NCBI RefSeq assembly: GCF_044647545.1
Contig: NZ_CP172818.1
From: Escherichia coli
Lineage (GTDB): Bacteria > Pseudomonadota > Gammaproteobacteria > Enterobacterales > Enterobacteriaceae
Reading direction: 5' to 3' (one strand)
Length of the DNA stretch: 64,000 bases
A program made the translations under genes and the position numbers. Of this stretch, positions 1,428 to 49,429 are shown one piece after another (the first letter of the stretch is position 1; every line of letters begins with the position of its first letter). Under the pieces are notes generated by a model. The model ran no database searches. It was not told where the DNA came from and saw nothing but the letters and a program-made list of their open reading frames with translations.

Positions 1428-4400
1428 CTGTTGAAATTCAGAATTTAGGTTTTGCTTTTGTTACTGGTGAAAATACAACAGGTATAAATAGTGGCACGAT
1501 CTCGTTATTACAAAATGGTAAAGATCCGGCACCGTCTCCCATTGTTTTACTGGCTACTAACGGAGGGAGCGCCACTAATGCAGGTACGATCACAGGTAAA
1601 GTGACGGAACAACATAGCGTATTTAACAAGTATTCAACGGGCACATCGAATTCATTTATTTTTAATAACGATGTCAGTAGCATAACAGGGTTAGTCGCTC
1701 AATCGAATAGCACAATTATCAATACTGACAGCGGCATCATTGATTTGTATGGTCGTGGTAGTGTCGGCATGCTTGCTATAGCAGATTCAACAGCAGAAAA
1801 TCAGGGTAAAATTACACTGGATTCTATGTGGGTAGATGCAAATGACACTACCGCAATGCGAGATATAGCTAGCAACAGCGCCATTGACTTCGGTACAGGT
1901 GTGGGAGTTGGTACTGATAGTTATAGTGGTGCAGGGAAAAATGCAACAGCAATTAACCAATTGGGCGGTGTTATAACTATTTATAACGCCGGCGCAGGTA
2001 TGGCGGCCTATGGCGCCAGCAATACAGTTATTAACCAGGGGACGATTAACCTCGAAAAAAATGGTAATTATGACGATAGTCTGGCAGCAAATACTCTGGT
2101 AGGGATGGCTGTTTATGAGCATGGTACTGCTATCAACGACCAGACGGGTGTTATCAATATCAATGTTGGTACTGGTCAGGCGTTTTATAACGATGGCACA
2201 GGAACAATTGTTAACTATGGTACAATCTGCACTTTCGGCGTGTGCCAATCGGGGAATGAGTACAATAATACAGATGATTTCACCTCACTGATCTATACCG
2301 GTGGCGATACGATTACACGAAGCGGAGAAACTGTAACGCTAAATAAATCTGCTGCTGTGACTGATAAGCTGGCTGGGAATGTTGTTAATAGCGGAACGCT
2401 TTCCGGTGATCAAATTACGGTATCAAGCGGTCTTCTGGAAAATACCAGCGGTGGCATCATCAATAACTTAGTAAAACTTGACAAGGGTGCCGTCATTAAA
2501 AATGCCGGGGTGATGACGAATAACGTCGATGTTAGCGGTGGAATCCTCAATAATGCCGGAGAAATGACTGCGCAAATTACCATGAATGCTGGTGCTGATA
2601 GTTCGTTAGTGAACAACACCGGAACCATCAATAAAATCGTGCAGAACGCGGGGGTATTCAATAATAGTGGCAGTGTAACAGGGCGGATGATGTCGGCTGG
2701 CGGGGTCTTTAATAATCAAACTGACGGGGCGATTATGAGAGGTGCTGCGCTGACAGGTACTGCAGTGGCAAATAACGAAGGAACCTGGAACCTCGGAAGT
2801 AGTAGTGAGGGTAACAACACCGGGATGCTGGAAGTTAATAATAATTCAGCTTTCAATAACCGCGGCGAGTTTATTCTTGATAACGACAAGAATGCTGTGC
2901 ACATCAACCAGTCCGGTACGCTTTATAATACCGGTCACATGAACATCAGTAATTCTTCCCACAACGGAGCCGTTAATATGTGGGGCGGAAATGGTCGTTT
3001 TATCAATGACGGAACGATTGATGTTTCTGCGAAGTCACTGGTAGTCAGCGCTAATAATGCCGGCGATCAGAATGCCTTCTTCTGGAACCAGGATAACGGG
3101 GTCATCAACTTCGATCACGACAGCGCCAGTGCCGTGAAAGTCACCCACAGCAACTTTATTGCCCAGAATGACGGCATCATGAACATCAGCGGCACCGGTG
3201 CTGTGGCTATGGAAGGTGATAAGAACGCGCAGCTGGTTAACAATGGCACCATCAACCTCGGTACCGCAGGCACTACTGACACGGGTATGATCGGTATGCA
3301 ACTCGATGCCAACGCCACGGCGGATGCGGTAATCGAAAACAACGGCACCATCAATATCTTCGCCAATGACTCGTTTGCATTTAGCGTACTGGGTACAGTA
3401 GGTCATGTGGTTAACAACGGCACGGTGGTGATTGCCGATGGGGTTACGGGTTCTGGACTGATCAAGCAGGGCGACAGCATCAATGTTGAAGGTATGAACG
3501 GTAACAACGGTAATAGCAGCGAAGTGCATTATGGCGACTATACGTTGCCGGATGTGCCGAAGCCCAATACGGTTAGTGTAACGTCGGGAAGTGATGAGGC
3601 TGGTGGCAGCATGAACAACCTCAACGGCTATGTCGTCGGTACCAACGTTAACGGCAGCGCCGGGAAGCTGAAGGTTAACAATGCCAGCATGAACGGCGTG
3701 GAGATTAACACGGGCTTTACCGCTGGTACGGCAGACACCACTGTGAGTTTTGATAACGTAGTGGAAGGTAGCAACCTGACCGACGCTGACGCCATCACCT
3801 CAACGTCCGTGGTATGGACTGCCAAAGGCAGCACCGATGCCAGCGGTAACGTTGACGTCACCATGAGCAAAAATGCCTACACCGATGTGGCAACAGATGC
3901 CTCGGTGAATGACATCGCGAAAGCACTGGATGCGGGTTACACCAACAACGAACTGTTTACCAGCCTGAACGTCGGCACGACTGCTGAACTGAACAGTGCT
4001 CTGAAACAGGTCAGCGGTAGCCAGGCGACCACGGTATTCCGCGAAGCGCGCGTGTTAAGCAACCGCTTTAGTATGCTGGCAGATGCCGCGCCGAAAGTGG
4101 GTAACGGTCTGGCGTTCAACGTTGTCGCGAAAGGCGATCCGCGTGCCGAGTTAGGTAATAATACCGAATACGACATGCTGGCATTGCGTAAAACTATCGA
4201 CCTGAGCGAAAGCCAGACGATGAGTCTGGAGTACGGTATCGCTCGTCTCGATGGTGATGGTGCGCAGAAAGCGGGTGATAATGGCGTTACAGGCGGTTAT
4301 AGCCAGTTTTTTGGCCTGAAACATCAGATGTCGTTCGATAACGGCATGAACTGGAATAACGCCTTGCGTTACGACGTTCACAACCTTGACAGCAGCCGCT

Positions 4401-27744: not shown

Positions 27745-29400
27745 ATGGATCGTAGACGATTTATTAAAGGTTCAATGGCTATGGCCGCCGTGTGCGGTAC
27801 CAGCGGCATTGCTTCTCTTTTTTCTCAGGCGGCATTCGCGGCAGATTCTGATATTGCCGACGGGCAAACCCAGCGTTTTGACTTCTCCATTCTACAGTCA
27901 ATGGCGCACGACTTAGCGCAAACCGCGTGGCGTGGTGCGCCGCGTCCGTTACCTGACACTCTGGCGACAATGACGCCGCAGGCTTATAACAGTATTCAAT
28001 ACGACGCCGAAAAATCGCTCTGGCATAACGTTGAGAACCGTCAACTGGACGCTCAGTTCTTCCATATGGGAATGGGATTCCGTCGCCGCGTTCGTATGTT
28101 TTCTGTTGATCCCGCAACACATCTGGCGCGTGAAATTCACTTTCGCCCGGAGTTGTTCAAATACAACGATGCGGGTGTTGATACCAAACAATTAGAAGGG
28201 CAAAGCGATCTCGGTTTTGCCGGTTTTCGCGTGTTTAAAGCCCCCGAACTGGCGCGCCGTGATGTCGTATCATTCCTCGGCGCGAGTTATTTCCGCGCCG
28301 TTGATGATACATATCAATACGGTTTGTCGGCCCGCGGCCTGGCGATCGACACTTACACCGACAGTAAAGAAGAGTTCCCCGACTTTACCGCCTTCTGGTT
28401 TGATACGGTAAAACCGGGGGCAACCACCTTTACCGTTTATGCGTTGCTCGATAGCGCCAGCATTACTGGTGCCTATAAGTTCACTATCCATTGCGAGAAA
28501 AGTCAGGTGATTATGGATGTGGAAAATCACCTGTATGCGCGCAAAGACATTAAACAGCTGGGCATTGCGCCGATGACCAGTATGTTCAGCTGCGGTACTA
28601 ATGAACGTCGGATGTGCGACACCATTCATCCGCAAATCCATGACTCTGATCGTTTGTCCATGTGGCGGGGCAACGGCGAGTGGATTTGTCGTCCGCTGAA
28701 CAATCCGCAAAAATTGCAGTTCAATGCTTACACCGACAACAACCCGAAAGGGTTTGGTTTATTGCAACTGGATCGTGATTTCTCCCATTATCAGGACATT
28801 ATGGGCTGGTATAACAAACGCCCAAGTCTGTGGGTGGAACCGCGTAACAAGTGGGGTAAGGGCACCATCGGCCTGATGGAAATCCCAACAACGGGCGAAA
28901 CGCTGGATAACATTGTCTGCTTCTGGCAGCCAGAAAAAGCTGTAAAAGCGGGTGATGAGTTTGCATTCCAGTATCGTCTGTACTGGAGTGCGCAACCGCC
29001 TGTTCATTGCCCATTAGCGCGCGTTATGGCGACGCGTACCGGCATGGGTGGTTTCCCGGAAGGTTGGGCTCCAGGTGAACACTATCCCGAAAAATGGGCG
29101 CGTCGTTTTGCCGTCGATTTAGTTGGTGGTGATCTGAAAGCTGCCGCGCCAAAAGGCATTGAGCCGGTGATTACGCTTTCCAGTGGGGAAGCGAAGCAAA
29201 TCGAAATTCTCTATATTGAACCCATTGATGGTTATCGTATTCAGTTTGACTGGTATCCGACTTCGGACTCCACTGATCCGGTCGATATGCGGATGTATCT
29301 GCGTTGTCAGGGCGACGCTATCAGTGAAACATGGCTGTATCAGTATTTCCCGCCAGCGCCCGATAAACGTCAGTATGTTGACGACCGCGTGATGAGTTAA
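27745..29400 (+). CDS. opgD: Osmoregulated periplasmic glucan biosynthesis protein D, Tat-exported
   Basis: 551-aa ORF with twin-arginine signal ([10 protein letters not shown]…AFA). Confidence 0.9.
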
Positions 29401-37363: not shown

Positions 37364-39325
37364 GTGACCGTATCTTCTCATCGACTTGAACTGTTAAGCC
37401 CGGCACGCGATGCCGCCATTGCCCGCGAAGCTATTTTGCACGGTGCCGATGCTGTTTATATCGGCGGCCCTGGTTTTGGTGCCCGTCATAATGCCAGTAA
37501 TAGCCTGAAAGATATTGCCGAGCTGGTGCCGTTTGCCCATCGTTATGGTGCAAAAATTTTCGTCACGCTTAACACAATTTTGCATGATGATGAGCTGGAA
37601 CCCGCGCAACGGCTGATTACTGACCTCTACCAGACCGGCGTCGATGCGCTGATTGTTCAGGATATGGGGATTCTGGAACTTGATATTCCGCCGATTGAAC
37701 TGCACGCCAGTACGCAGTGCGATATTCGCACAGTAGAAAAAGCGAAGTTCCTCTCTGATGTTGGCTTTACGCAGATTGTGCTGGCGCGAGAGCTGAATCT
37801 TGAGCAGATCCGCGCGATTCACCAGGCCACGGACGCGACCATTGAATTCTTTATTCATGGCGCACTGTGCGTGGCCTATTCGGGTCAGTGCTACATTTCT
37901 CATGCGCAAACAGGGCGTAGCGCCAACCGTGGCGATTGCTCGCAGGCGTGCCGTTTGCCATACACATTGAAAGACGATCAGGGGCGGGTGGTTTCCTATG
38001 AAAAACATCTGCTGTCGATGAAAGATAACGATCAGACTGCCAACCTCGGCGCGCTGATTGATGCTGGCGTACGCTCCTTCAAGATTGAAGGGCGTTACAA
38101 AGATATGAGCTACGTGAAGAATATCACCGCCCATTATCGCCAGATGCTGGATGCCATTATTGAAGAACGTGGCGATCTGACGCGTGCTTCATCAGGTCGT
38201 ACTGAACATTTCTTTGTTCCATCGACGGAAAAGACTTTCCACCGTGGTAGCACAGATTATTTTGTGAATGCCCGTAAAGGCGATATTGGCGCGTTCGATT
38301 CGCCGAAATTTATCGGCCTGCCGGTGGGCGAAGTATTGAAAGTAGCGAAAGATCATATTGATGTTGCCGTTACCGAGCCACTGGCAAATGGCGATGGCCT
38401 GAACGTGATGATTAAACGTGAAGTCGTCGGTTTTCGTGCCAATACGGTCGAGAAAACCGGAGAAAATCAGTACCGCGTCTGGCCCAATGAAATGCCAGCA
38501 GATTTGCACAAAATTCGCCCGCATCACCCACTAAACCGTAATCTTGATCATAACTGGCAGCAGGCACTGACAAAAACCTCCAGCGAACGTCGGGTGGCGG
38601 TAGACATTGAACTGGGCGGCTGGCAGGAACAACTGATTCTGACCCTCACCAGTGAAGAGGGTGTCAGCATCACGCATACGCTGGACGGGCAGTTCGACGA
38701 AGCCAATAACGCCGAAAAAGCAATGAACAATCTAAAGGATGGTCTGGCAAAACTGGGGCAAACCATCTATTACGCCCGCGATGTGCAAATTAATTTGCCG
38801 GGTGCGCTGTTTGTACCAAACAGTCTGTTAAACCAGTTCCGCCGTGAAGCCGCCGACATGCTGGATGCTGCACGTCTTGCCGGTTACCAGCGGGGCAGCC
38901 GTAAACCGGTTGCTGATCCTGCGCCGGTTTATCCGCAAACGCATCTGAGTTTCCTCGCGAACGTATACAACCAGAAAGCGCGTGAATTTTATCATCGCTA
39001 TGGTGTGCAACTGATTGACGCGGCGTATGAGGCACATGAAGAGAAGGGCGAAGTCCCGGTGATGATCACCAAGCATTGTCTGCGCTTTGCCTTCAATCTG
39101 TGCCCGAAACAGGCGAAAGGCAATATCAAAAGCTGGAAGGCGACGCCAATGCAACTGGTTAACGGCGATGAAGTATTAACGCTAAAGTTTGATTGCCGCC
39201 CATGCGAGATGCACGTCATTGGCAAAATCAAAAATCACATACTGAAAATGCCGTTACCGGGAAGCGTAGTGGCATCCGTAAGTCCGGATGATCTGCTGAA
39301 AACATTGCCGAAGCGAAAAGGGTAA
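37364..39325 (+). CDS. ydcP: Peptidase U32 family protein (YdcP/RlhA, implicated in 23S rRNA hydroxylation)
   Basis: 653 aa from the GTG at 37364 (MTVSSHRLELLSPARD…); the track ORF starts at an upstream GTG, 37322. Confidence 0.75.
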   Translation: MTVSSHRLELLSPARDAAIAREAILHGADAVYIGGPGFGARHNASNSLKDIAELVPFAHRYGAKIFVTLNTILHDDELEPAQRLITDLYQTGVDALIVQDMGILELDIPPIELHASTQCDIRTVEKAKFLSDVGFTQIVLARELNLEQIRAIHQATDATIEFFIHGALCVAYSGQCYISHAQTGRSANRGDCSQACRLPYTLKDDQGRVVSYEKHLLSMKDNDQTANLGALIDAGVRSFKIEGRYKDMSYVKNITAHYRQMLDAIIEERGDLTRASSGRTEHFFVPSTEKTFHRGSTDYFVNARKGDIGAFDSPKFIGLPVGEVLKVAKDHIDVAVTEPLANGDGLNVMIKREVVGFRANTVEKTGENQYRVWPNEMPADLHKIRPHHPLNRNLDHNWQQALTKTSSERRVAVDIELGGWQEQLILTLTSEEGVSITHTLDGQFDEANNAEKAMNNLKDGLAKLGQTIYYARDVQINLPGALFVPNSLLNQFRREAADMLDAARLAGYQRGSRKPVADPAPVYPQTHLSFLANVYNQKAREFYHRYGVQLIDAAYEAHEEKGEVPVMITKHCLRFAFNLCPKQAKGNIKSWKATPMQLVNGDEVLTLKFDCRPCEMHVIGKIKNHILKMPLPGSVVASVSPDDLLKTLPKRKG

Positions 39326-39370
39326 AACGTCAGTTTTCGGGTTACTCACCACTCATCAAATCTGCATGAT

Positions 39371-39405
39371 ATTGCCTGGCGGGTAAGGCGTCATGCCGCA
39401 TCCGG
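39371..39405. repeat. REP (repetitive extragenic palindrome) element
   Basis: Reverse complement TTGCCGGATGCGGCATGACGCCTTACCCGCCAGGC matches the REP consensus; sits in the convergent ydcP/yncJ gap. Confidence 0.6.
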
Positions 39406-39416
39406 CAACAAATGAC

Positions 39417-39647
39417 TCAACGCTGTCCCGCTTCTGGTTTGCGCGATTTTTGCCAGTAAAAATGCTCGCGCAAACCTTCCGCCGACTCTTCCGCCACAGC
39501 ACGCAATTCATCGCTGTCCGCTTCATGACGCAGCTGATGATCCACATTCTTTACCCACATAAATTCATGTCCTTTGTGCCCTGCCATGAGTTGTCCTGAG
39601 AACAGTGCACACGTTAATAAGACAACCGATAACGCCTTCGAAAACAT
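39417..39647 (-). CDS. yncJ: DUF2554 family secreted small protein
   Basis: 76-aa ORF with signal peptide (MFSKALSVVLLTCALFSGQLMA). Confidence 0.7.
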   Translation of the reverse strand: MFSKALSVVLLTCALFSGQLMAGHKGHEFMWVKNVDHQLRHEADSDELRAVAEESAEGLREHFYWQKSRKPEAGQR

Positions 39648-39868
39648 CCCGCCACCTTTTTCTAACCTTTTGCCGCTATGATGCCAATCGTTTCTTGAGG
39701 TTATTATTCAGTTTTGCAAATTAGCGCAAAGAAATTCTGGAATCTTCCTTCCTGATTTTGCATTGCATTCTGCCGTTGCGGCGATTTAGTGCTATTTTCG
39801 AGCAAATTACACACGGAGGTAAACACTAATGTTTACTTTGTTGATATACTCAGCGGCAGGGAGGCGAT

Positions 39869-40045
39869 GTGAAACAAAGCGAGTTCAGACGTTGGCTCGA
39901 ATCTCAGGGCGTCGATGTAGCGAATGGCAGCAACCATTTAAAACTGAGGTTTCATGGGAGGCGCAGTGTCATGCCGCGTCACCCCTGCGATGAGATTAAA
40001 GAACCATTGCGTAAAGCAATCCTGAAACAACTCGGTTTGAGTTAA
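39869..40045 (+). CDS. hicA: Type II toxin HicA (mRNA interferase), 58 aa
   Basis: GTG start at 39869 behind a GGGAGG site; reads VKQSEFRRWLESQGVDVANGSNHLKLRFHG…; directly upstream of hicB. Confidence 0.8.
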   Translation: MKQSEFRRWLESQGVDVANGSNHLKLRFHGRRSVMPRHPCDEIKEPLRKAILKQLGLS

Positions 40046-40090
40046 TCGCCAATTAAAAAGGTTAATGACATGCGAGAGACAGTCGAAATT

Positions 40091-40507
<417 letters not shown>

Positions 40508-40585
40508 TTACAGTTAACGAAAAGTTGTCATTTTTAACAACTGATATAGACTGCCGAATCATCTGCACATAATTACGATTCGATA

Positions 40586-41992
40586 ATGAAAAAATACCAG
40601 CAGCTTGCAGAACAATTACGCGAGCAGATTGCGTCGGGTATCTGGCAACCCGGCGATCGTTTGCCTTCGTTGCGTGACCAGGTGGCGCTTTCTGGCATGA
40701 GCTTTATGACCGTGAGCCATGCCTATCAGTTGCTCGAAAGTCAGGGATATATTATCGCGCGACCGCAGTCGGGTTATTACGTTGCGCCACAGGCAATAAA
40801 AATGCCGAAAGCGCCAGTCATTCCAGTCACTCGAGATGAAGCAGTCGATATCAACACCTATATTTTTGATATGTTGCAGGCCAGTCGCGATCCGTCGGTA
40901 GTTCCGTTTGCCTCGGCCTTTCCCGACCCGCGACTTTTCCCCCTCCAACAACTAAACCGCTCGCTGGCGCAGGTAAGCAAAACCGCCACGGCGATGAGCG
41001 TGATTGAAAACTTACCGCCAGGAAACGCAGAACTGCGTCAGGCTATTGCTCGTCGCTATGCCTTACAGGGCATCACCATTTCTCCTGATGAAATTGTCAT
41101 TACTGCCGGGGCGTTAGAGGCATTAAACCTCAGTTTGCAAGCGGTAACTGAACCGGGCGATTGGGTGATAGTAGAGAATCCTTGTTTCTACGGCGCGTTG
41201 CAGGCGCTGGAGCGGTTACGGCTGAAGGCGTTATCGGTGGCGACGGACGTTAAAGAAGGGATAGATCTTCAGGCGCTGGAACTGGCGTTGCAGGAGTATC
41301 CGGTGAAAGCGTGCTGGCTGATGACTAATAGCCAGAATCCACTCGGATTTACCTTAACACCGCAAAAAAAAGCACAACTGGTGGCGTTGCTCAATCAGTA
41401 CAACGTAACGCTGATTGAAGATGACGTATACAGCGAACTTTATTTTGGACGGGAAAAACCGCTGCCTGCGAAAGCGTGGGATCGCCACGATGGCGTTTTG
41501 CATTGCTCTTCGTTTTCGAAATGTCTGGTGCCTGGTTTTCGTATTGGTTGGGTCGCCGCCGGAAAACATGCACGTAAAATTCAACGCTTGCAGTTGATGA
41601 GTACGCTTTCCACCAGCTCACCGATGCAGCTTGCGCTGGTGGATTACCTTTCCACGCGCCGATACGACGCCCATCTTCGTCGCCTGCGTCGCCAGCTTGC
41701 GGAACGTAAACAACGTGCCTGGCAGGCACTGCTGCGTTATCTGCCTGCGGAAGTGAAAATTCATCATAATGACAGCGGTTATTTTCTCTGGCTGGAGCTC
41801 CCCGCGCCGTTAGATGCGGGCGAATTAAGCCTGGCAGCACTGACGCATCATATCAGTATTGCGCCGGGTAAAATGTTTTCTACCGGTGAAAACTGGTCAC
41901 GTTTTTTCCGTTTTAATACCGCGTGGCAGTGGGGAGAACGTGAAGAACAGGCGGTTAAACAATTAGGCACACTTATTCAAGAACGGCTGTAA
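40586..41992 (+). CDS. ydcR: MocR/GabR-type regulator: GntR helix-turn-helix fused to a PLP aminotransferase-like domain
   Basis: 468-aa ORF; N-terminal winged helix-turn-helix and class-I aminotransferase-like body. Confidence 0.8.
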   Translation: MKKYQQLAEQLREQIASGIWQPGDRLPSLRDQVALSGMSFMTVSHAYQLLESQGYIIARPQSGYYVAPQAIKMPKAPVIPVTRDEAVDINTYIFDMLQASRDPSVVPFASAFPDPRLFPLQQLNRSLAQVSKTATAMSVIENLPPGNAELRQAIARRYALQGITISPDEIVITAGALEALNLSLQAVTEPGDWVIVENPCFYGALQALERLRLKALSVATDVKEGIDLQALELALQEYPVKACWLMTNSQNPLGFTLTPQKKAQLVALLNQYNVTLIEDDVYSELYFGREKPLPAKAWDRHDGVLHCSSFSKCLVPGFRIGWVAAGKHARKIQRLQLMSTLSTSSPMQLALVDYLSTRRYDAHLRRLRRQLAERKQRAWQALLRYLPAEVKIHHNDSGYFLWLELPAPLDAGELSLAALTHHISIAPGKMFSTGENWSRFFRFNTAWQWGEREEQAVKQLGTLIQERL

Positions 41993-42236
41993 TAGCGTTT
42001 AATTTAATTCCTCTCAGGTTGGGTAATATGAATTTCGAATAGCAGTCATATTTCCTAACTCCTTGTCTATACTCCAGAAGATAACCTTACAGACGGCATA
42101 ATGCGCGGTAGCTCACAACCTGATTAAATTTTCTCAGGGGCGAAGGTGTGCCTGCAAGCCGCCGTCTATGGTTAAACAAGGAGATATTTTTACGGCACGG
42201 CGGCTGAACAATTAATTACGACAGGAGTAAGACTTT

Positions 42237-43382
42237 ATGAGCAAGACATTTGCCCGCAGCAGCCTGTGTGCGCTTACCATGACATTAATGACCGCCCACG
42301 CCGCCGAACCTCCCACAAATTTAGATAAACCGGAAGGGCGACTGGATATTATCGCCTGGCCGGGATACATCGAACGCGGACAAACTGATAAACAATACGA
42401 CTGGGTAACGCAATTCGAAAAAGAGACAGGCTGCGCGGTGAATGTGAAAACCGCCGCGACTTCCGATGAAATGGTCAGTCTGATGACCAAAGGGGGTTAC
42501 GATCTGGTTACGGCATCCGGCGATGCCTCGCTGCGCCTGATTATGGGCAAACGCGTGCAGCCGATTAATACCGCATTGATTCCCAACTGGAAAGCGCTCG
42601 ATCCGCGCGTGGTTAAAGGCGACTGGTTTAACGTTGGCGGCAAAGTTTACGGCACACCTTACCAATGGGGGCCGAACCTGCTGATGTACAACACTAAAAC
42701 CTTCCCGACGCCGCCGAATAGCTGGCAAGTGGTTTTTGTTGAGCAGAATCTGCCGGACGGCAAGAGCAATAAAGGCCGCGTTCAGGCTTATGATGGCCCT
42801 ATCTACATTGCGGACGCTGCGTTGTTCGTTAAAGCCACTCAGCCACAGTTGGGCATCAGCGATCCGTATCAACTCACCGAAGAACAGTACCAGGCGGTGC
42901 TGAAAGTGCTGCGCGATCAACATAGTTTGATCCATCGCTACTGGCATGACACTACCGTGCAAATGAGCGATTTCAAAAACGAGGGTGTGGTTGCTTCCAG
43001 TGCATGGCCCTATCAGGCCAACGCCCTGAAAGCCGAAGGCCAGCCTGTCGCTACCGTTTTCCCGAAGGAGGGCGTTACCGGTTGGGCTGATACCACCATG
43101 CTACATAGCGAAGCGAAACATCCGGTTTGCGCCTACAAATGGATGAACTGGTCATTAACCCCAAAAGTGCAGGGCGATGTAGCGGCCTGGTTTGGCTCGC
43201 TACCGGTAGTGCCGCAAGGGTGTAAAGCCAGTCCGTTATTAGGCGAGAAAGGTTGTGAAACAAACGGTTTTAACTATTTCGATAAAATCGCCTTCTGGAA
43301 AACGCCTATCGCAGAAGGGGGCAAGTTTGTTCCCTACAGTCGCTGGACGCAGGATTACATTGCCATTATGGGTGGTCGCTAA
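42237..43382 (+). CDS. ydcS: Periplasmic polyamine-binding protein of an ABC transporter
   Basis: 381-aa ORF with signal peptide (…MTLMTAHAAEP); PotD/PotF-like. Confidence 0.85.
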   Translation: MSKTFARSSLCALTMTLMTAHAAEPPTNLDKPEGRLDIIAWPGYIERGQTDKQYDWVTQFEKETGCAVNVKTAATSDEMVSLMTKGGYDLVTASGDASLRLIMGKRVQPINTALIPNWKALDPRVVKGDWFNVGGKVYGTPYQWGPNLLMYNTKTFPTPPNSWQVVFVEQNLPDGKSNKGRVQAYDGPIYIADAALFVKATQPQLGISDPYQLTEEQYQAVLKVLRDQHSLIHRYWHDTTVQMSDFKNEGVVASSAWPYQANALKAEGQPVATVFPKEGVTGWADTTMLHSEAKHPVCAYKWMNWSLTPKVQGDVAAWFGSLPVVPQGCKASPLLGEKGCETNGFNYFDKIAFWKTPIAEGGKFVPYSRWTQDYIAIMGGR

Positions 43383-43399
43383 CTTCGCTGGGGTGTTTT

Positions 43400-44413
43400 A
43401 TGACGTACGCAGTGGAGTTTGACAACGTCTCACGGTTGTACGGTGACGTGCGCGCAGTAGATGGCGTCAGTATTGCGATAAAAGATGGTGAGTTCTTCTC
43501 TATGCTGGGGCCGTCCGGTTCCGGCAAAACCACCTGCCTGCGCCTGATTGCTGGATTCGAACAACTTTCCGGCGGGGCTATCTCTATCTTTGGTAAACCC
43601 GCCAGCAATCTGCCACCGTGGGAGCGGGACGTGAATACTGTCTTCCAGGACTACGCGCTATTTCCGCATATGTCGATTCTTGACAACGTCGCCTACGGGC
43701 TGATGGTCAAAGGCGTGGATAAAAAACAGCGGCATGCGATGGCGCAAGAGGCGCTGGAGAAAGTGGCGCTGGGTTTTGTTCAGCAACGTAAACCGTCACA
43801 ACTTTCTGGTGGTCAGCGCCAGCGGGTTGCTATCGCCAGAGCATTGGTGAATGAACCGCGTGTGTTGTTGCTGGATGAACCGCTCGGCGCACTGGATCTC
43901 AAATTGCGTGAGCAGATGCAACTGGAACTGAAAAAGCTGCAACAGTCTCTCGGTATCACTTTTATCTTCGTTACCCACGATCAGGGCGAAGCGTTATCGA
44001 TGTCCGATCGTGTGGCGGTTTTCAATAATGGACGCATTGAGCAGGTCGATTCCCCGCGTGATCTCTATATGCGCCCGCGCACGCCGTTTGTTGCCGGGTT
44101 CGTCGGGACATCGAATGTTTTTGATGCACTGATGGCAGACAAACTTTGTGGCATGACGGGAAGCTTCGCCCTGCGACCGGAACATATCCGCTTCAACATC
44201 CCCGGCGAAGTGCAGGCTAATGGCACGATCCAGGCGGTGCAGTATCAGGGCGCGGCGACCCGTTTTGAACTGAGACTGAACGGCGGTGAAAAACTGCTGG
44301 TGAGTCAGGCCAATATGACAGGCGAAGAACTGCCCGCCACACTCACGCCCGGAAAACAGGTGATGGTTTCCTGGTCGCGTGATGTGATGGTACCGCTGGT
44401 TGAGGAGAGGTGA
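43400..44413 (+). CDS. ydcT: ABC transporter ATP-binding protein (PotA-like)
   Basis: 337-aa ORF with Walker A (GPSGSGKTT), ABC signature (LSGGQRQR) and Walker B. Confidence 0.85.
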   Translation: MTYAVEFDNVSRLYGDVRAVDGVSIAIKDGEFFSMLGPSGSGKTTCLRLIAGFEQLSGGAISIFGKPASNLPPWERDVNTVFQDYALFPHMSILDNVAYGLMVKGVDKKQRHAMAQEALEKVALGFVQQRKPSQLSGGQRQRVAIARALVNEPRVLLLDEPLGALDLKLREQMQLELKKLQQSLGITFIFVTHDQGEALSMSDRVAVFNNGRIEQVDSPRDLYMRPRTPFVAGFVGTSNVFDALMADKLCGMTGSFALRPEHIRFNIPGEVQANGTIQAVQYQGAATRFELRLNGGEKLLVSQANMTGEELPATLTPGKQVMVSWSRDVMVPLVEER

Positions 44414-45355
44414 ATGGCGATGAACGTATTGCAATCACCTTCACATCCAGGTCTGGGTAAGGTGTCCGGTTTCTTCTGGCGTAATCCGGGGCTGGGGCTG
44501 TTTTTACTGCTGCTTGGCCCGCTAATGTGGTTTGGCATTGTCTATTTCGGCTCGCTGCTGACACTGTTATGGCAGGGATTTTATACCTTTGACGATTTCA
44601 CCATGTCGGTAACGCCGGAACTGACGCTGGCCAATATCCGTGCGCTGTTTAATCCGGCGAATTACGACATCATTCTCCGCACGCTGATTATGGCTGTGGC
44701 AGTCACTATCGCCAGCGCCATTCTGGCTTTTCCAATGGCGTGGTATATGGCGCGCTATACCAGCGGGAAAATGAAAGCGTTTTTTTATATCGCGGTAATG
44801 TTGCCGATGTGGGCGAGCTACATTGTGAAAGCCTATGCCTGGACGTTATTGCTTGCAAAAGATGGCGTGGCGCAGTGGTTTTTACAACATCTGGGGCTGG
44901 AACCACTGCTGACGGCGTTCCTTACATTACCTGCGGTGGGCGGCAATACGCTGTCAACTTCCGGGCTGGGGCGCTTTCTGGTGTTTCTCTATATCTGGCT
45001 GCCGTTCATGATCCTGCCCGTGCAGGCGGCGCTTGAGCGTTTGCCGCCGTCATTGTTGCAGGCGTCAGCTGATCTCGGCGCACGTCCACGACAAACCTTT
45101 CGCTATGTGGTGCTGCCGCTGGCGATCCCGGGTATTGCTGCTGGCTCTATCTTTACCTTCTCACTCACACTGGGCGATTTTATCGTCCCGCAGCTGGTTG
45201 GCCCGCCAGGATATTTTATCGGCAATATGGTTTATTCCCAGCAGGGGGCGATTGGCAATATGCCGATGGCGGCGGCATTCACCCTGGTGCCGATTGTTCT
45301 CATCGCACTGTACCTGGCGTTCGTGAAACGTCTGGGAGCGTTCGATGCACTCTGA
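44414..45355 (+). CDS. ydcU: ABC transporter permease (PotB-like)
   Basis: 313-aa membrane ORF; start abuts the ydcT stop. Confidence 0.85.
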
Positions 45356-46139
45356 ACGCGCACCGTTTTTCCTCAAACTGGCGGCCTGGGGCGGCGTGGT
45401 TTTCCTACATTTTCCCATCCTGATTATCGCCGCCTATGCGTTTAACACTGAAGATGCGGCGTTTAGTTTTCCACCGCAAGGCCTGACGCTGCGCTGGTTT
45501 AGCGTGGCAGCACAGCGTAGTGATATTCTTGATGCCGTGACACTGTCACTTAAAGTGGCAGCGCTGGCGACATTAATCGCGCTGGTGTTAGGGACGCTGG
45601 CCGCTGCCGCGCTGTGGCGACGAGACTTTTTCGGCAAAAACGCCATTTCGCTGTTACTGCTGCTGCCCATTGCGCTGCCGGGCATTGTCACTGGTCTGGC
45701 GCTATTAACCGCCTTTAAAACCATCAATCTGGAGCCGGGATTTTTCACCATCGTGGTCGGCCATGCGACTTTTTGCGTAGTGGTGGTGTTTAACAATGTC
45801 ATCGCCCGTTTTCGCCGCACCTCGTGGAGTCTGGTTGAGGCGTCAATGGATCTTGGGGCCAATGGCTGGCAAACCTTCCGCTACGTAGTGTTGCCGAATC
45901 TCAGTTCGGCGCTACTGGCAGGAGGAATGCTGGCGTTTGCCTTGTCGTTCGATGAAATCATCGTGACGACCTTTACGGCAGGTCATGAACGAACGTTACC
46001 GTTGTGGTTGCTCAATCAGCTTGGGCGACCGCGTGATGTACCGGTAACCAACGTGGTGGCACTGCTGGTTATGTTGGTAACAACCTTGCCGATCCTGGGA
46101 GCCTGGTGGCTAACCCGCGAAGGCGACAATGGTCAATAA
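45345..46139 (+). CDS. ydcV: ABC transporter permease (PotC-like)
   Basis: 264-aa membrane ORF overlapping ydcU by 11 bp. Confidence 0.85.
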
Positions 46140-46160
46140 CCACTGATACAGGAATATGCT

Positions 46161-47585
46161 ATGCAACATAAGTTACTGATTAACGGAGAACTGGTTAGCG
46201 GCGAAGGGGAAAAACAGCCTGTCTATAATCCGGCAACGGGGGACGTTTTACTAGAGATTGCCGAGGCATCCGCAGAGCAGGTGGATGCTGCTGTTCGCGC
46301 GGCAGATGCAGCATTTGCCGAATGGGGGCAAACCACGCCGAAAGCGCGTGCGGAATGCCTGCTGAAACTGGCTGATGTTATCGAAGAAAATGGTCAGGTT
46401 TTTGCCGAACTGGAGTCCCGTAACTGTGGCAAACCGCTGCATAGTGCGTTCAATGATGAAATTCCGGCGATTGTCGATGTCTTTCGCTTTTTCGCCGGAG
46501 CAGCTCGCTGCCTGAATGGTCTGGCGGCAGGTGAATATCTTGAAGGTCATACTTCGATGATCCGTCGCGATCCGTTGGGAGTCGTGGCTTCTATCGCACC
46601 GTGGAATTATCCGCTGATGATGGCAGCGTGGAAACTGGCTCCGGCGCTGGCGGCAGGGAACTGCGTAGTGCTCAAACCATCAGAAATTACCCCGCTGACC
46701 GCGTTGAAGTTGGCAGAGCTGGCGAAAGATATCTTCCCGGCAGGCGTGATTAACGTACTGTTTGGCAGAGGCAAAACGGTGGGCGATCCGCTGACCGGAC
46801 ATCCCAAAGTGCGGATGGTGTCGCTGACGGGCTCTATCGCCACTGGGGAACACATCATCAGCCATACCGCGCCGTCCATTAAGCGTACTCATATGGAACT
46901 TGGTGGCAAAGCGCCAGTGATTGTTTTTGATGATGCGGATATTGAAGCTGTGGTCGAAGGTGTACGTACTTTTGGCTATTACAATGCCGGACAGGATTGT
47001 ACTGCGGCTTGTCGGCTCTACGCGCAAAAAGGCATTTACGATACGCTGGTGGAAAAACTCGGTGCTGCGGTGGCAACGTTAAAATCGGGTTCGCCGGATG
47101 ACGAGTCTACGGAGCTTGGACCTTTAAGCTCGCTGGCGCATCTCGAACGCGTCAGCAAGGCGGTAGAAGAGGCGAAAGCGACAGGGCACATCAAAGTGAT
47201 CACTGGCGGTGAAAAGCGCAAGGGTAATGGCTATTACTATGCGCCGACGCTGCTGGCTGGCGCATTACAGGACGATGCCATCGTGCAAAAAGAGGTATTT
47301 GGTCCGGTAGTGAGTGTTACGCTCTTCGACAACGAAGAACAGGTGGTGAATTGGGCAAATGACAGCCAGTACGGACTTGCATCCTCGGTATGGACGAAAG
47401 ATGTGGGCAGGGCGCATCGCGTCAGCGCGCGGCTGCAATATGGTTGTACCTGGGTCAATACCCATTTCATGCTGGTAAGTGAAATGCCGCACGGTGGGCA
47501 GAAACTTTCTGGTTACGGCAAGGATATGTCACTTTATGGGCTGGAGGATTACACCGTCGTCCGCCACGTCATGGTTAAACATTAA
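46161..47585 (+). CDS. patD: Gamma-aminobutyraldehyde dehydrogenase
   Basis: 474-aa aldehyde dehydrogenase ORF, last gene of the ydcSTUV cluster. Confidence 0.9.
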
Positions 47586-47681
47586 GGGTAATATTGCAGA
47601 TCGTAAGAGTATGAGATGATCTTGCGTACTGTCAGAGCACTGATTTCTCTGACAGTACGTGCTGCGTGCAAAATCACTACA

Positions 47682-47777
47682 TCAAATAAACCAGCCAAAT
47701 CTCATAGAGATAAGAGTAAACAAACCAACAGCAGCAAAGACATTTATCAGTACTACAGTTCTACTGGAAACATTCAT
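47682..47777 (-). CDS. yncL: Small membrane protein YncL (31 aa)
   Basis: Minus-strand reading MNVSSRTVVLINVFAAVGLFTLISMRFGWFI behind a GGTGG site; below the ORF-track length cutoff. Confidence 0.7.
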   Translation of the reverse strand: MNVSSRTVVLINVFAAVGLFTLISMRFGWFI

Positions 47778-47971
47778 TTTTGCCACCTTTTATCATTGCC
47801 CCTATGTGTATAGTACGGGTTAAGAAAATCCGCAATAATACTCATTCTGAAGATGGATAAGGACAAGTTGCTGTTTGATGATTTTTTCTCAAACTGGTGA
47901 AAAAATTTGATGCACGTCAAAAAATGACGCATATTTGCGCGCGTTTTATTCATCTGGCTGGACGCCCGTAC

Positions 47972-48145
47972 ATGTCTCTCTATCAACACATGCTTGTTTT
48001 TTATGCGGTTATGGCAGCAATCGCATTTCTTATCACCTGGTTTCTTTCTCACGATAAGAAACGCATCCGTTTCTTAAGCGCCTTTCTGGTGGGGGCAACA
48101 TGGCCGATGAGTTTCCCGGTGGCGCTGTTGTTTTCACTGTTTTAA
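47972..48145 (+). CDS. ortT: Orphan membrane toxin OrtT (YdcX), 57 aa
   Basis: Internal ATG of track ORF 47897..48145 gives MSLYQHMLVFYAVMAAIAFLITWFLSHDKKRIRF…; in-frame ATG at 47924 is an alternative start. Confidence 0.7.
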   Translation: MSLYQHMLVFYAVMAAIAFLITWFLSHDKKRIRFLSAFLVGATWPMSFPVALLFSLF

Positions 48146-48230
48146 ATCTTACTCACTGGCTTGACGGCACCACGCAGACTTATATCATTTGGATGAATCG
48201 ATAAATTTCACAAGTGGCTAAGGAGAAAGT

Positions 48231-48464
48231 ATGTCGCATCTGGATGAAGTCATCGCGCGCGTGGATGCCGCGATTGAAGAGAGCGTCATTGCCCATATGA
48301 ACGAATTATTAATCGCCCTGAGCGATGACGCGGAGTTAAGTCGGGAAGATCGCTACACCCAGCAGCAGCGTTTGCGCACAGCGATCGCCCATCACGGTCG
48401 CAAGCATAAAGAAGATATGGAAGCGCGCCATGAACAGTTAACCAAAGGCGGCACCATCCTGTGA
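48231..48464 (+). CDS. ydcY: DUF2526 family small protein
   Basis: 77-aa ORF (MSHLDEVIARVDAAIEESV…). Confidence 0.7.
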   Translation: MSHLDEVIARVDAAIEESVIAHMNELLIALSDDAELSREDRYTQQQRLRTAIAHHGRKHKEDMEARHEQLTKGGTIL

Positions 48465-48914
48465 TTAAAATGAGCGTCTGGCTACCAACCAGGCGCCAAC
48501 CACAAGTAAAATTGCGCCACAAATTGGGCCGAACAACGCCCGTAGTGGTACGCCATGACTGCGAAAGATATCCAGCACCAGACCGCCAATCAGCTGGCTG
48601 GCGACCAGTACTGCAATAGTTGTCGCCGCTCCCACATTCTGATATCCGCTGATACTGGCGAAGACAAAAAACGATCCCAGCAAGCCAGGTATAAGTGTCC
48701 ACCAGCGCACGCTGGACACCAGTTCGCCAAACCCCGCCATACCTTGTTTAAACCATAAAATAGAAACAAAGAGCACAATCCCCACCAGTGAGTTCAGCAA
48801 CATGGCGATGAGAATGGTAGAGGAGGTCTGGGTGATGCGCACCATCAGCGTGTTCTGGACTACCAGACCAATTCCGGCGGCAATCAAAAAAGCAAGGGTG
48901 AGCGACTGATTCAT
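48465..48914 (-). CDS. ydcZ: DMT-superfamily inner-membrane protein
   Basis: 149-aa hydrophobic ORF; 4-bp overlap with mnaT. Confidence 0.75.
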   Translation of the reverse strand: MNQSLTLAFLIAAGIGLVVQNTLMVRITQTSSTILIAMLLNSLVGIVLFVSILWFKQGMAGFGELVSSVRWWTLIPGLLGSFFVFASISGYQNVGAATTIAVLVASQLIGGLVLDIFRSHGVPLRALFGPICGAILLVVGAWLVARRSF

Positions 48915-49429
48915 CCAATCGCGTCCGGTTCAGTGCGCTCGTCGAGTTGCAACTGCATAAATGTCAGATCCAGCCAGCGCCCAAATTTAGTGCCCACCTG
49001 CGGCATTTGTGCGGTGATGACAAATCCCAGCGACTGGTGGAGATGCAGCGAAGCCTGATTTTGCGATTCGATCCCGGCGACCATGACATGCTTCCCGCAA
49101 TCCCGCGCTTCATCAATCAATCGGCTTAACAATTTACGCCCCAGACCTTTGCCCTGATGATCGGGATGGACATAAACCGAATGTTCCACGGTATGGCGAA
49201 AACCATCGAAACTACGCCAGTCGCCAAACGAGGCATATCCCGTCACTACGCCATCTTGTTCACTTACCAGCACTGGATAACCAGCTAAAGTCCGCGCTTC
49301 AAACCAGGCAATGCGATTATCTGCATCCACCGTTTGGTCATTCCAGATAGCCGCCGTATACAACACGGCGTGGTTATAAATTTCCGCAATGGCAGCACAG
49401 TCGGCTTTGCGGGCAAAACGGATGGACAT
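48911..49429 (-). CDS. mnaT: GNAT-family L-amino acid N-acyltransferase
   Basis: 172 aa from MSIRFARKADCAAIAEIYNHAV…; track ORF extends further upstream. Confidence 0.8.
   Translation of the reverse strand: MSIRFARKADCAAIAEIYNHAVLYTAAIWNDQTVDADNRIAWFEARTLAGYPVLVSEQDGVVTGYASFGDWRSFDGFRHTVEHSVYVHPDHQGKGLGRKLLSRLIDEARDCGKHVMVAGIESQNQASLHLHQSLGFVITAQMPQVGTKFGRWLDLTFMQLQLDERTEPDAIG

Follow-up and report, generated by a model that had tools for sequence, protein, structure and literature searches.

The ydcR locus of Escherichia coli probably consists of two neighbouring, separately controlled units, ydcR and ydcSTUV-patD

The locus investigated here lies in a 64,000-nt stretch of Escherichia coli DNA (assembly GCF_044647545.1, contig NZ_CP172818.1; the whole stretch is called the window and its positions are used throughout) and comprises the regulator gene ydcR followed by ydcS, ydcT, ydcU, ydcV and patD. 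Its closest described counterpart is the locus of E. coli K-12, in which ydcR (b1439), ydcSTUV (b1440–b1443) and patD/ydcW (b1444) have the same order and both intergenic lengths are the same. The hicB-ydcR gap was identical in K-12 and the window, and the ydcR-ydcS gap differed at 5 of 244 positions; these were strain-level substitutions only, one of which created the first TCTCAGG copy of the gap, which K-12 lacks. The locus, the operon, its control by RpoS and the binding of YdcR at its own promoter have all been published. In the literature, ydcSTUV-patD has been handled as a single operon encoding a PotD/PotF-like ATP-binding cassette (ABC) importer and a gamma-aminobutyraldehyde dehydrogenase.

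YdcR resembles GabR of Bacillus subtilis and PdxR in that a GntR-type winged helix-turn-helix (HTH) domain is joined to an aminotransferase-like dimerisation domain that binds pyridoxal 5'-phosphate (PLP), and also in having, at its own promoter, an operator whose two repeats lie far apart, with a divergent target operon in its relatives. Unlike the direct repeats of GabR, the arms of the YdcR operator are inverted and 23 nt apart, and its predicted target is a terminal oxidase, not an amino-compound pathway. YdcSTUV shares its four-component architecture with PotFGHI and PotABCD, and the Pot proteins were the closest named families for every subunit; however, YdcSTUV scored far below every Pot equivalog cut-off. 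The ydcS promoter (ydcSp) is like RpoS-dependent, CRP-assisted stationary-phase promoters, with a C(-13)-TAnnnT -10 element followed by TTA, a chromatin immunoprecipitation (ChIP) peak of E-sigmaS and a transcription start site (TSS). At class I CRP promoters, TGTGA-N6-TCACA is centred near -61.5, -72.5, -82.5 or -92.5.

Comparison with 80 Enterobacteriaceae loci (encoded YdcR 81–96% identical), together with published data, indicated that ydcR and ydcSTUV-patD are probably two neighbouring units under separate control. In the first unit, a dimer of the PLP-binding MocR-type regulator YdcR would bind ATTACAGTT-N23-AACTGATAT over its own promoter. In most Enterobacteriaceae, this operator would be shared with a divergent bd-type oxidase operon or duplicated before the oxidase; Escherichia would have lost the oxidase operon, and YdcR would be left with its own operator only at this locus. 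In the second unit, ydcSTUV-patD would be transcribed from a sigma-S-type promoter in the ydcR-ydcS gap, in dependence on RpoS and cyclic AMP (cAMP). A preliminary description of this DNA had placed YdcR control of the transporter in the gap (41993–42236). That proposal was not borne out: the gap contained no operator, it was listed as a negative control in the legend of a published electrophoretic mobility shift assay (EMSA), its repeated motifs were at chance level, and it held an RpoS promoter instead. The genes are the following.

40586–41992, + strand: ydcR, open reading frame (ORF) of a MocR-subfamily regulator
42237–43382, + strand: ydcS, ORF of the substrate-binding protein
43400–44413, + strand: ydcT, ORF of the ATPase
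44414–45355, + strand: ydcU, ORF of a permease
45345–46139, + strand: ydcV, ORF of a permease
46161–47585, + strand: patD, ORF of gamma-aminobutyraldehyde dehydrogenase

The coordinates of all six ORFs agreed exactly with those given before. The spacings from ydcR through ydcS, ydcT, ydcU and ydcV to patD were 244, 17, 0, -11 and 21 bp; the tight packing and the 11-bp ydcU/ydcV overlap of the preliminary description were found again, while its range of 0–20 bp for the gaps was too narrow by the one gap of 21 bp.

Upstream of ydcR, a family consensus of ATAACAGTT, 23 nt and AACTGATAT, with inverted arms of 9 nt, was found whichever gene was the upstream neighbour. The operator was present in 76 of the 80 loci; CAG and CTG were 30 nt apart in 73 of these and 31 nt apart in the other 3, and the sequence of the spacer was variable. 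Two elements were located in the window.

40507–40547, strand not assigned: YdcR operator, inverted repeat ATTACAGTT (40507–40515), 23 nt, AACTGATAT (40539–40547)
40525–40552, + strand: promoter-like hexamers for ydcR, TTGTCA, 16 nt, TAGACT, from a consensus scan, overlapping the right arm of the operator

The operator of the window was identical in K-12. A weight matrix was constructed from 68 distinct orthologous sites with the window left out, and its training sites scored 33–51 bits. With this matrix, the site at 40504–40550 scored 41.9 bits and was the sole match in 64 kb, the runner-up having -2.8 bits. The right arm passes into hexamers that resemble a -10 element (TAGACT in the window, TATAAT or TATACT in other genera), and the hexamers at 40525–40552 are the putative ydcR promoter. 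Since the operator overlaps this promoter, YdcR most likely autoregulates, the direction of regulation being a prediction. The comparative analysis independently reproduced and sharpened the published prediction of the YdcR operator.

The left arm of Escherichia, ATTACAGTT, differs from the family consensus ATAACAGTT, and the hicB stop codon TAA (40505–40507) overlaps the first base of this arm. The overlap suggests that the yncJ-hicAB DNA, which stands in place of the bd-oxidase operon, ends at the edge of the operator. When the arms only were scored, the runner-up was at 27983 inside a 551-aa ORF, so it was probably a chance match and was rejected.

Published binding data for YdcR are available from Pfanzelt et al. 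2022 (PMC9321722), where YdcR was enriched with a pyridoxal probe and its binding of PLP was shown by intact-protein mass spectrometry. According to the text and figure legend of that paper, EMSA was performed with two carboxytetramethylrhodamine (TAMRA)-labelled fragments, PRydcR from the hicB-ydcR region and the 244-bp PRydcR-ydcS, and some lanes contained PLP, either alone or together with putrescine. PRydcR was shifted by YdcR from 50 nM, and the 244-bp PRydcR-ydcS fragment, used in place of PRydcR, is named in the legend among the negative controls. The PRydcR primers map to positions 40471–40673 of the window, and this EMSA-positive fragment contains the operator. For the control fragment, the forward primer starts with TAGCGTTTAATTTAATTCCTCT, at the first base after the ydcR stop codon, and its start, TAGCGTTTAATT, is the start of the gap in the window. 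EMSA of YdcR on 41993..42236 had been asked for in the preliminary description; as far as the text and legend report it, this experiment is already in PMC9321722 with the gap fragment as a negative control, and the wet-lab binding test is saved. In the preferred explanation, YdcR does not bind the ydcR-ydcS gap. The size of the bound fragment is stated in the paper as 189 bp, and the primers were 203 bp apart in the window; the printed PRydcR forward primer differed from the window by one mismatch, and the K-12 locus did not yield an exact copy either.

The weight matrix gave a best score of -12.5 bits in the ydcR-ydcS gap of the window. None of 63 orthologous ydcR-ydcS gaps had a site above -2.7 bits, the 12 ydcR-patD gaps (loci without ydcSTUV) scored -22 bits or lower, and in none of the 80 loci was an operator site of at least 15 bits found downstream of ydcR. 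The repeated words that had been proposed as regulator sites were present in the gap: TCTCAGG had two copies (42012, 42132), as had ACGGCA (42093, 42192). Compared with dinucleotide shuffles of the gap, 2 repeated 7-mers were observed (1.7 expected) and 7 repeated 6-mers (6.85 expected), counts that were reached by 47–51% of the shuffles; repeated words were also less numerous in the gap than in typical 244-bp tiles of the 64-kb window.

Conservation of the gap was analysed in an alignment of 64 distinct orthologous ydcR-ydcS gaps from about 20 genera. Mean identity was 0.40–0.42 at both TCTCAGG copies and the first ACGGCA, against a gap-wide mean of 0.62. Only the second ACGGCA (42192–42197) was conserved (0.99), and it lay inside a longer block, GGAGATATTTTTACGGCA, which begins at the ydcS transcription start. 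Two TCTCAGG copies occurred in only 1 of 63 orthologous gaps, and E. coli K-12 has TCTTAGA in place of the first copy. The repeated TCTCAGG and ACGGCA words are due to chance, and three of the four copies are in poorly conserved columns. Other candidates for a regulator site in the gap were also rejected. The columns of the direct repeat TTAATTCCTCTCAGG/TTAAATTTTCTCAGG and of the palindrome CCTGATTAAATTTTCTCAGG were not conserved. The inverted repeat AGCCGCCGT/ACGGCGGCT has a left arm that overlaps the -10 region by 1 base and a right arm in the early transcript, and its full 9-bp pairing was restricted to Escherichia.

These results bear on the explanation that YdcR, with a polyamine-related effector, acts on the repeated gap motifs to switch on ydcSTUV-patD, so that all six genes form one module. 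The adjacency and common orientation of ydcR and ydcSTUV-patD, a synteny kept in about 64 of the 80 Enterobacteriaceae loci, speak for it, as does the fact that MocR regulators such as GabR govern gamma-aminobutyrate (GABA) and amine catabolism. The gap also has a weak match to the operator in which the arms are correctly spaced (42083–42129, TTACAG...CTGAT, the site of -12.5 bits). However, this match scored 54 bits less than the true operator, its left arm was not conserved and its right arm differs in K-12, and it was rejected as a site. The gap fragment is a non-binding control in the EMSA as described in PMC9321722, the repeated words are neither conserved nor above chance level, none of the orthologous gaps offered a better site than those given above, and a terminator follows ydcR in many genera. 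Published regulogs and the distant relatives of YdcR tie it to bd oxidase and not to transporters. One module controlled from the gap is therefore very improbable, and this explanation is already largely refuted.

Separate control is further indicated by the promoter of ydcSTUV-patD, whose elements in the gap are listed below.

41993–42236, + strand: ydcR-ydcS intergenic region, which holds the ydcSTUV-patD promoter and no YdcR-type site
42055–42077, + strand: conserved block CTAACTCCTTGTCTATACTCCAG, mean identity 0.92 in the 64 distinct gaps
42099–42120, strand not assigned: CRP-like site TAATGCGC-GGTAGC-TCACAACC, centred at -72.5 from the TSS
42165–42175, + strand: sigma-S-type extended -10 TCTATGGTTAA, with the hexamer TATGGT at 42167–42172 and C at -13
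42182, + strand: ydcS transcription start, K-12 v2 coordinate 1509623 (PMC4447067 Table 1), giving a 55-nt 5' untranslated region

Sigma-S ChIP sequencing (PMC4447067) reported a peak at 1509526–1509697 and the validated ydcS TSS at 1509623, both in K-12 v2 coordinates. An offset of +1976 converts these to the current K-12 record, and the peak corresponds to 42085–42256 of the window; when the offset was checked on lpp, the tabulated TSS fell 38 nt before the ATG. The extended -10 TCTATGGTTAA matched the sigma-S consensus TCTATACTTAA at 9 of 11 positions and was central in the E-sigmaS ChIP peak. C-13, T-12, A-11 and T-7 were invariant across the 64 gaps, while the middle bases varied. The converted TSS lies 10 nt past the end of the hexamer, a slightly long distance that puts the precision of the TSS at a few nt.

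In published transcriptomics, ydcS and ydcU were down 7- to 12-fold without RpoS or cAMP, and ydcS and ydcT were lowered in an rpoS mutant. The published cAMP dependence was 8.9-fold for ydcS and 11.9-fold for ydcU and could be indirect. Control of ydcSTUV-patD by Nac has been cited from earlier work. The CRP-like site matched the consensus at 13 of 22 positions, with a perfect right half; unlike typical CRP sites, its left half is weak (3 of 5, TGCGC vs TGTGA), and CRP binding is predicted. Its half-sites were conserved at 0.8–1.0 and its central 6 nt at 0.03–0.75. This site at -72.5, one of the class I positions, would probably explain the cAMP dependence, and the conserved gap blocks fit the published RpoS-dependent ydcS promoter.

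The block at 42055–42077, which lies some 100 bp before the TSS and beyond the ChIP peak, contains a second sigma-S-like -10, TCTATACT (42066–42073), and could be a second promoter or the binding site of another factor. Another conserved block was found at 42023–42042 (CATAGGAAATnTGCATAG in other genera). At 42193–42207, most genera other than Escherichia have CGGCAYGGCTGCCGC, with sigma-54 spacing and a possible 5-bp hairpin, and E. coli has CGGCACGGCGGCTGA, in which both are lost. A sigma-54 promoter at this position was rejected, the GG-N10-GC spacing being present in other genera, whereas E. coli has GA at -13/-12.

The ydcSTUV genes were lost in 12 species, including Salmonella enterica subsp. 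diarizonae, Enterobacter cloacae, E. hormaechei, Citrobacter sedlakii and Superficieibacter, and in these ydcR is followed directly by patD (gap of 138–355 bp; loci L022, L023, L024, L026, L040, L054, L067, L071–L073, L076 and L077). The -10 block GCsGTCTA of the ydcS promoter was kept before patD in 8 of the 12. The retention of this -10 block after loss of ydcSTUV indicates that PatD can be expressed without the transporter genes and that the promoter belongs to the downstream unit.

On the other side of ydcR, a divergent cytochrome bd subunit I/II pair (PF01654 and PF02322; 465 + 336 aa) was located upstream in 69 of the 80 loci. The start codons of ydcR and the oxidase were 147–177 bp apart in about 15 loci, with a single operator between them. 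Where the oxidase was separated by about 660–700 bp (Enterobacter, Lelliottia and others), ydcR kept the first copy of the operator, and a second one of 20–43 bits preceded the oxidase gene by about 80 bp. Oxidase genes were found in Escherichia neither at the locus nor anywhere in the 64-kb window, and yncJ-hicAB was in their place. The divergent operon of the 69 loci (e.g., L029 6317–8724 and L071 5999–8349) is a third, short-form bd-type oxidase operon, for which the bd-II subunit 1 model gave only 295 bits (cut-off 1025).

In a published regulon reconstruction of the YdcR orthologous group (65 regulators, 12 regulogs), the targets were CydA/CydB-like, ylaC-like and NapH-like and never ydcSTUV, and the neighbourhood analysis performed here agreed with these regulogs. 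More distant relatives of YdcR were taken from a representative library, a word-index protein search having given only proteins of at least 76% identity. The relative of 55% identity lies opposite to cytochrome bd I/II/DUF2474 in a divergent arrangement, and their shared region of 152 bp holds two copies of ATAACAG. One of the six distant relatives (42–55% identity) precedes a FixG/NapH-like gene, and none of the six was beside an ABC transporter (substrate-binding protein) or PatD. We infer from these neighbourhoods and operators that a bd-type oxidase operon is the conserved target of YdcR in the relatives.

In K-12 (NC_000913.3, 476000–486000, about 3346–3375 of that segment), ylaC is preceded at about 95 nt by a perfect half-site ATAACAGTT; ATTACAATT comes 11 nt after this half-site, in a direct, not inverted, arrangement. 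As a sequence match, the half-site is consistent with the membership of ylaC in the E. coli YdcR regulon that has been predicted in the literature.

The analysis has a corrective value, as a MocR regulator beside a 'polyamine' transporter should not be taken as regulation. The evidence obtained here and the EMSA, as presented in the text and legend of PMC9321722, point to another operator and, in relatives, to another target, the bd-type oxidase.

Several points weigh against two separately controlled units. No recognisable E. coli terminator was found between ydcR and ydcS, so some read-through coupling into ydcS is possible. The synteny of ydcR with ydcSTUV and patD was kept across Enterobacteriaceae, which could reflect a functional link, and expression data of a ydcR mutant for ydcS or patD were not found in the literature. 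The outcome for the gap fragment is known from the text and figure legend of PMC9321722 and not from the gel image, and its control lane had one protein concentration (200 nM), for which the legend names no effector. What is said here of autoregulation, of the CRP site and of the oxidase target is a prediction from sequence.

The missing terminator bears on another explanation, that read-through specific to Escherichia, starting at the ydcR promoter under YdcR control and perhaps also at hicAB, modulates the basal expression of ydcSTUV-patD without any binding in the gap. All the genes are co-directional. A terminator-like hairpin was absent after ydcR in the window and in 3 of 4 other Escherichia loci, and a hairpin with a T-run was present no more than 140 nt after the ydcR stop in 36 of 64 gaps overall; the RNA after the stop had no significant structure (z = -0.6). 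Nevertheless, the principal signal for ydcS lies at the RpoS promoter of ydcS itself, Rho-dependent termination is plausible in the untranslated gap of 244 bp, ydcR is probably weakly expressed, and no transcript evidence for read-through was seen. This explanation was considered unlikely. Read-through would be the only apparent route by which YdcR might possibly influence the transporter. A somewhat less likely extension is that loss of the oxidase orphaned the PLP-sensing YdcR and that loss of the terminator then rewired it, by lineage-specific read-through from its autoregulated promoter, to tune ydcSTUV-patD. If true, the coupling would be indirect and lineage-specific, not operator-based control. 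In this unlikely reading, the family of YdcR would, more generally, respond to PLP or amino compounds and switch an alternative terminal oxidase, a link that is so far a computational prediction only.

The units of the preferred explanation, ydcR on the one side and ydcSTUV-patD on the other, were also characterised by the domain content of their proteins. The N-terminus of YdcR is a GntR-type winged HTH domain (residues 3–66; Pfam PF00392, E = 1.1e-14), and its C-terminus is a fold-type-I aminotransferase-like domain (Aminotran_1_2, residues 141–445; Pfam PF00155, E = 1.3e-33). The earlier description of ydcR as an HTH fused to a PLP fold was confirmed by both Pfam domains and a full-length alignment with GabR, which (4N0B) was the closest solved full-length relative. 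The top NCBIfam matches of YdcR were MocR-like models, and it remained under the cut-off of every named MocR equivalog, with 268.6 bits for PdxR (cut-off 320) and 125 bits for GabR (cut-off 600). YdcR is a MocR-type member of the GntR regulators.

Pfam analysis of the transporter identified SBP_bac_8/1 in YdcS, ABC_tran and TOBE_2 in YdcT, and BPD_transp_1 in the two permeases YdcU and YdcV. PatD matched Pfam Aldedh and the NCBIfam gamma-aminobutyraldehyde dehydrogenase (ABALDH) equivalog TIGR03374, with 1039 bits vs a cut-off of 909.3. YdcS has its own NCBIfam equivalog, NF041888 (811 bits), and did not reach membership of the PotF model (61.5 bits, cut-off 636) or the PotD model (46.1 bits, cut-off 582); YdcT scored 357 bits against the PotA model (cut-off 482). 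The crystal structure of YdcS is 6NLP, and its nearest matches in the Protein Data Bank other than itself were of the PotF/SpuD type. In the literature, YdcSTUV has been called a 'putative' putrescine importer by homology, or the assignment was taken from the transporter classification database; further published roles are those of YdcS and YdcV in complexed poly-(R)-3-hydroxybutyrate (cPHB) synthase activity and DNA uptake. At the level of homology, YdcSTUV is an ABC importer distantly like PotD/PotF/PotABC, with a polyamine as its putative substrate. As for the polyamine-type catabolic module of the preliminary description, the operon and the general class of function stood, control by YdcR through the gap did not, and the polyamine substrate is a matter of homology only.

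The 8-kb stretch of the locus matched several complete annotated chromosomes of E. coli at 100% identity and was found in 5398 of 5426 complete genomes, as a locus of the E. coli core genome. In RefSeq, the order is hicAB, ydcR, ydcS, ydcT, ydcU, ydcV and patD, then yncL, ortT and ydcY. An Rfam scan of 39300–49000 at a permissive E-value gave no RNA family in either gap, and one sub-threshold chance match was inside patD. A terminator-like hairpin and T-run, ACCGGTGAAAACTGGT CACGTTTTTT, was located at 41882–41907 inside the 3' coding end of ydcR, about 95 nt before its stop codon, and is probably due to chance. One further repeat was found behind patD.

47626–47658, strand not assigned: perfect 12-bp inverted repeat GTACTGTCAGAG...CTCTGACAGTAC with a 9-nt loop, in the patD/yncL interval

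It has a T-run on neither side, and yncL is convergent to patD; this repeat would likely mark the end of the operon as a bidirectional transcript end.

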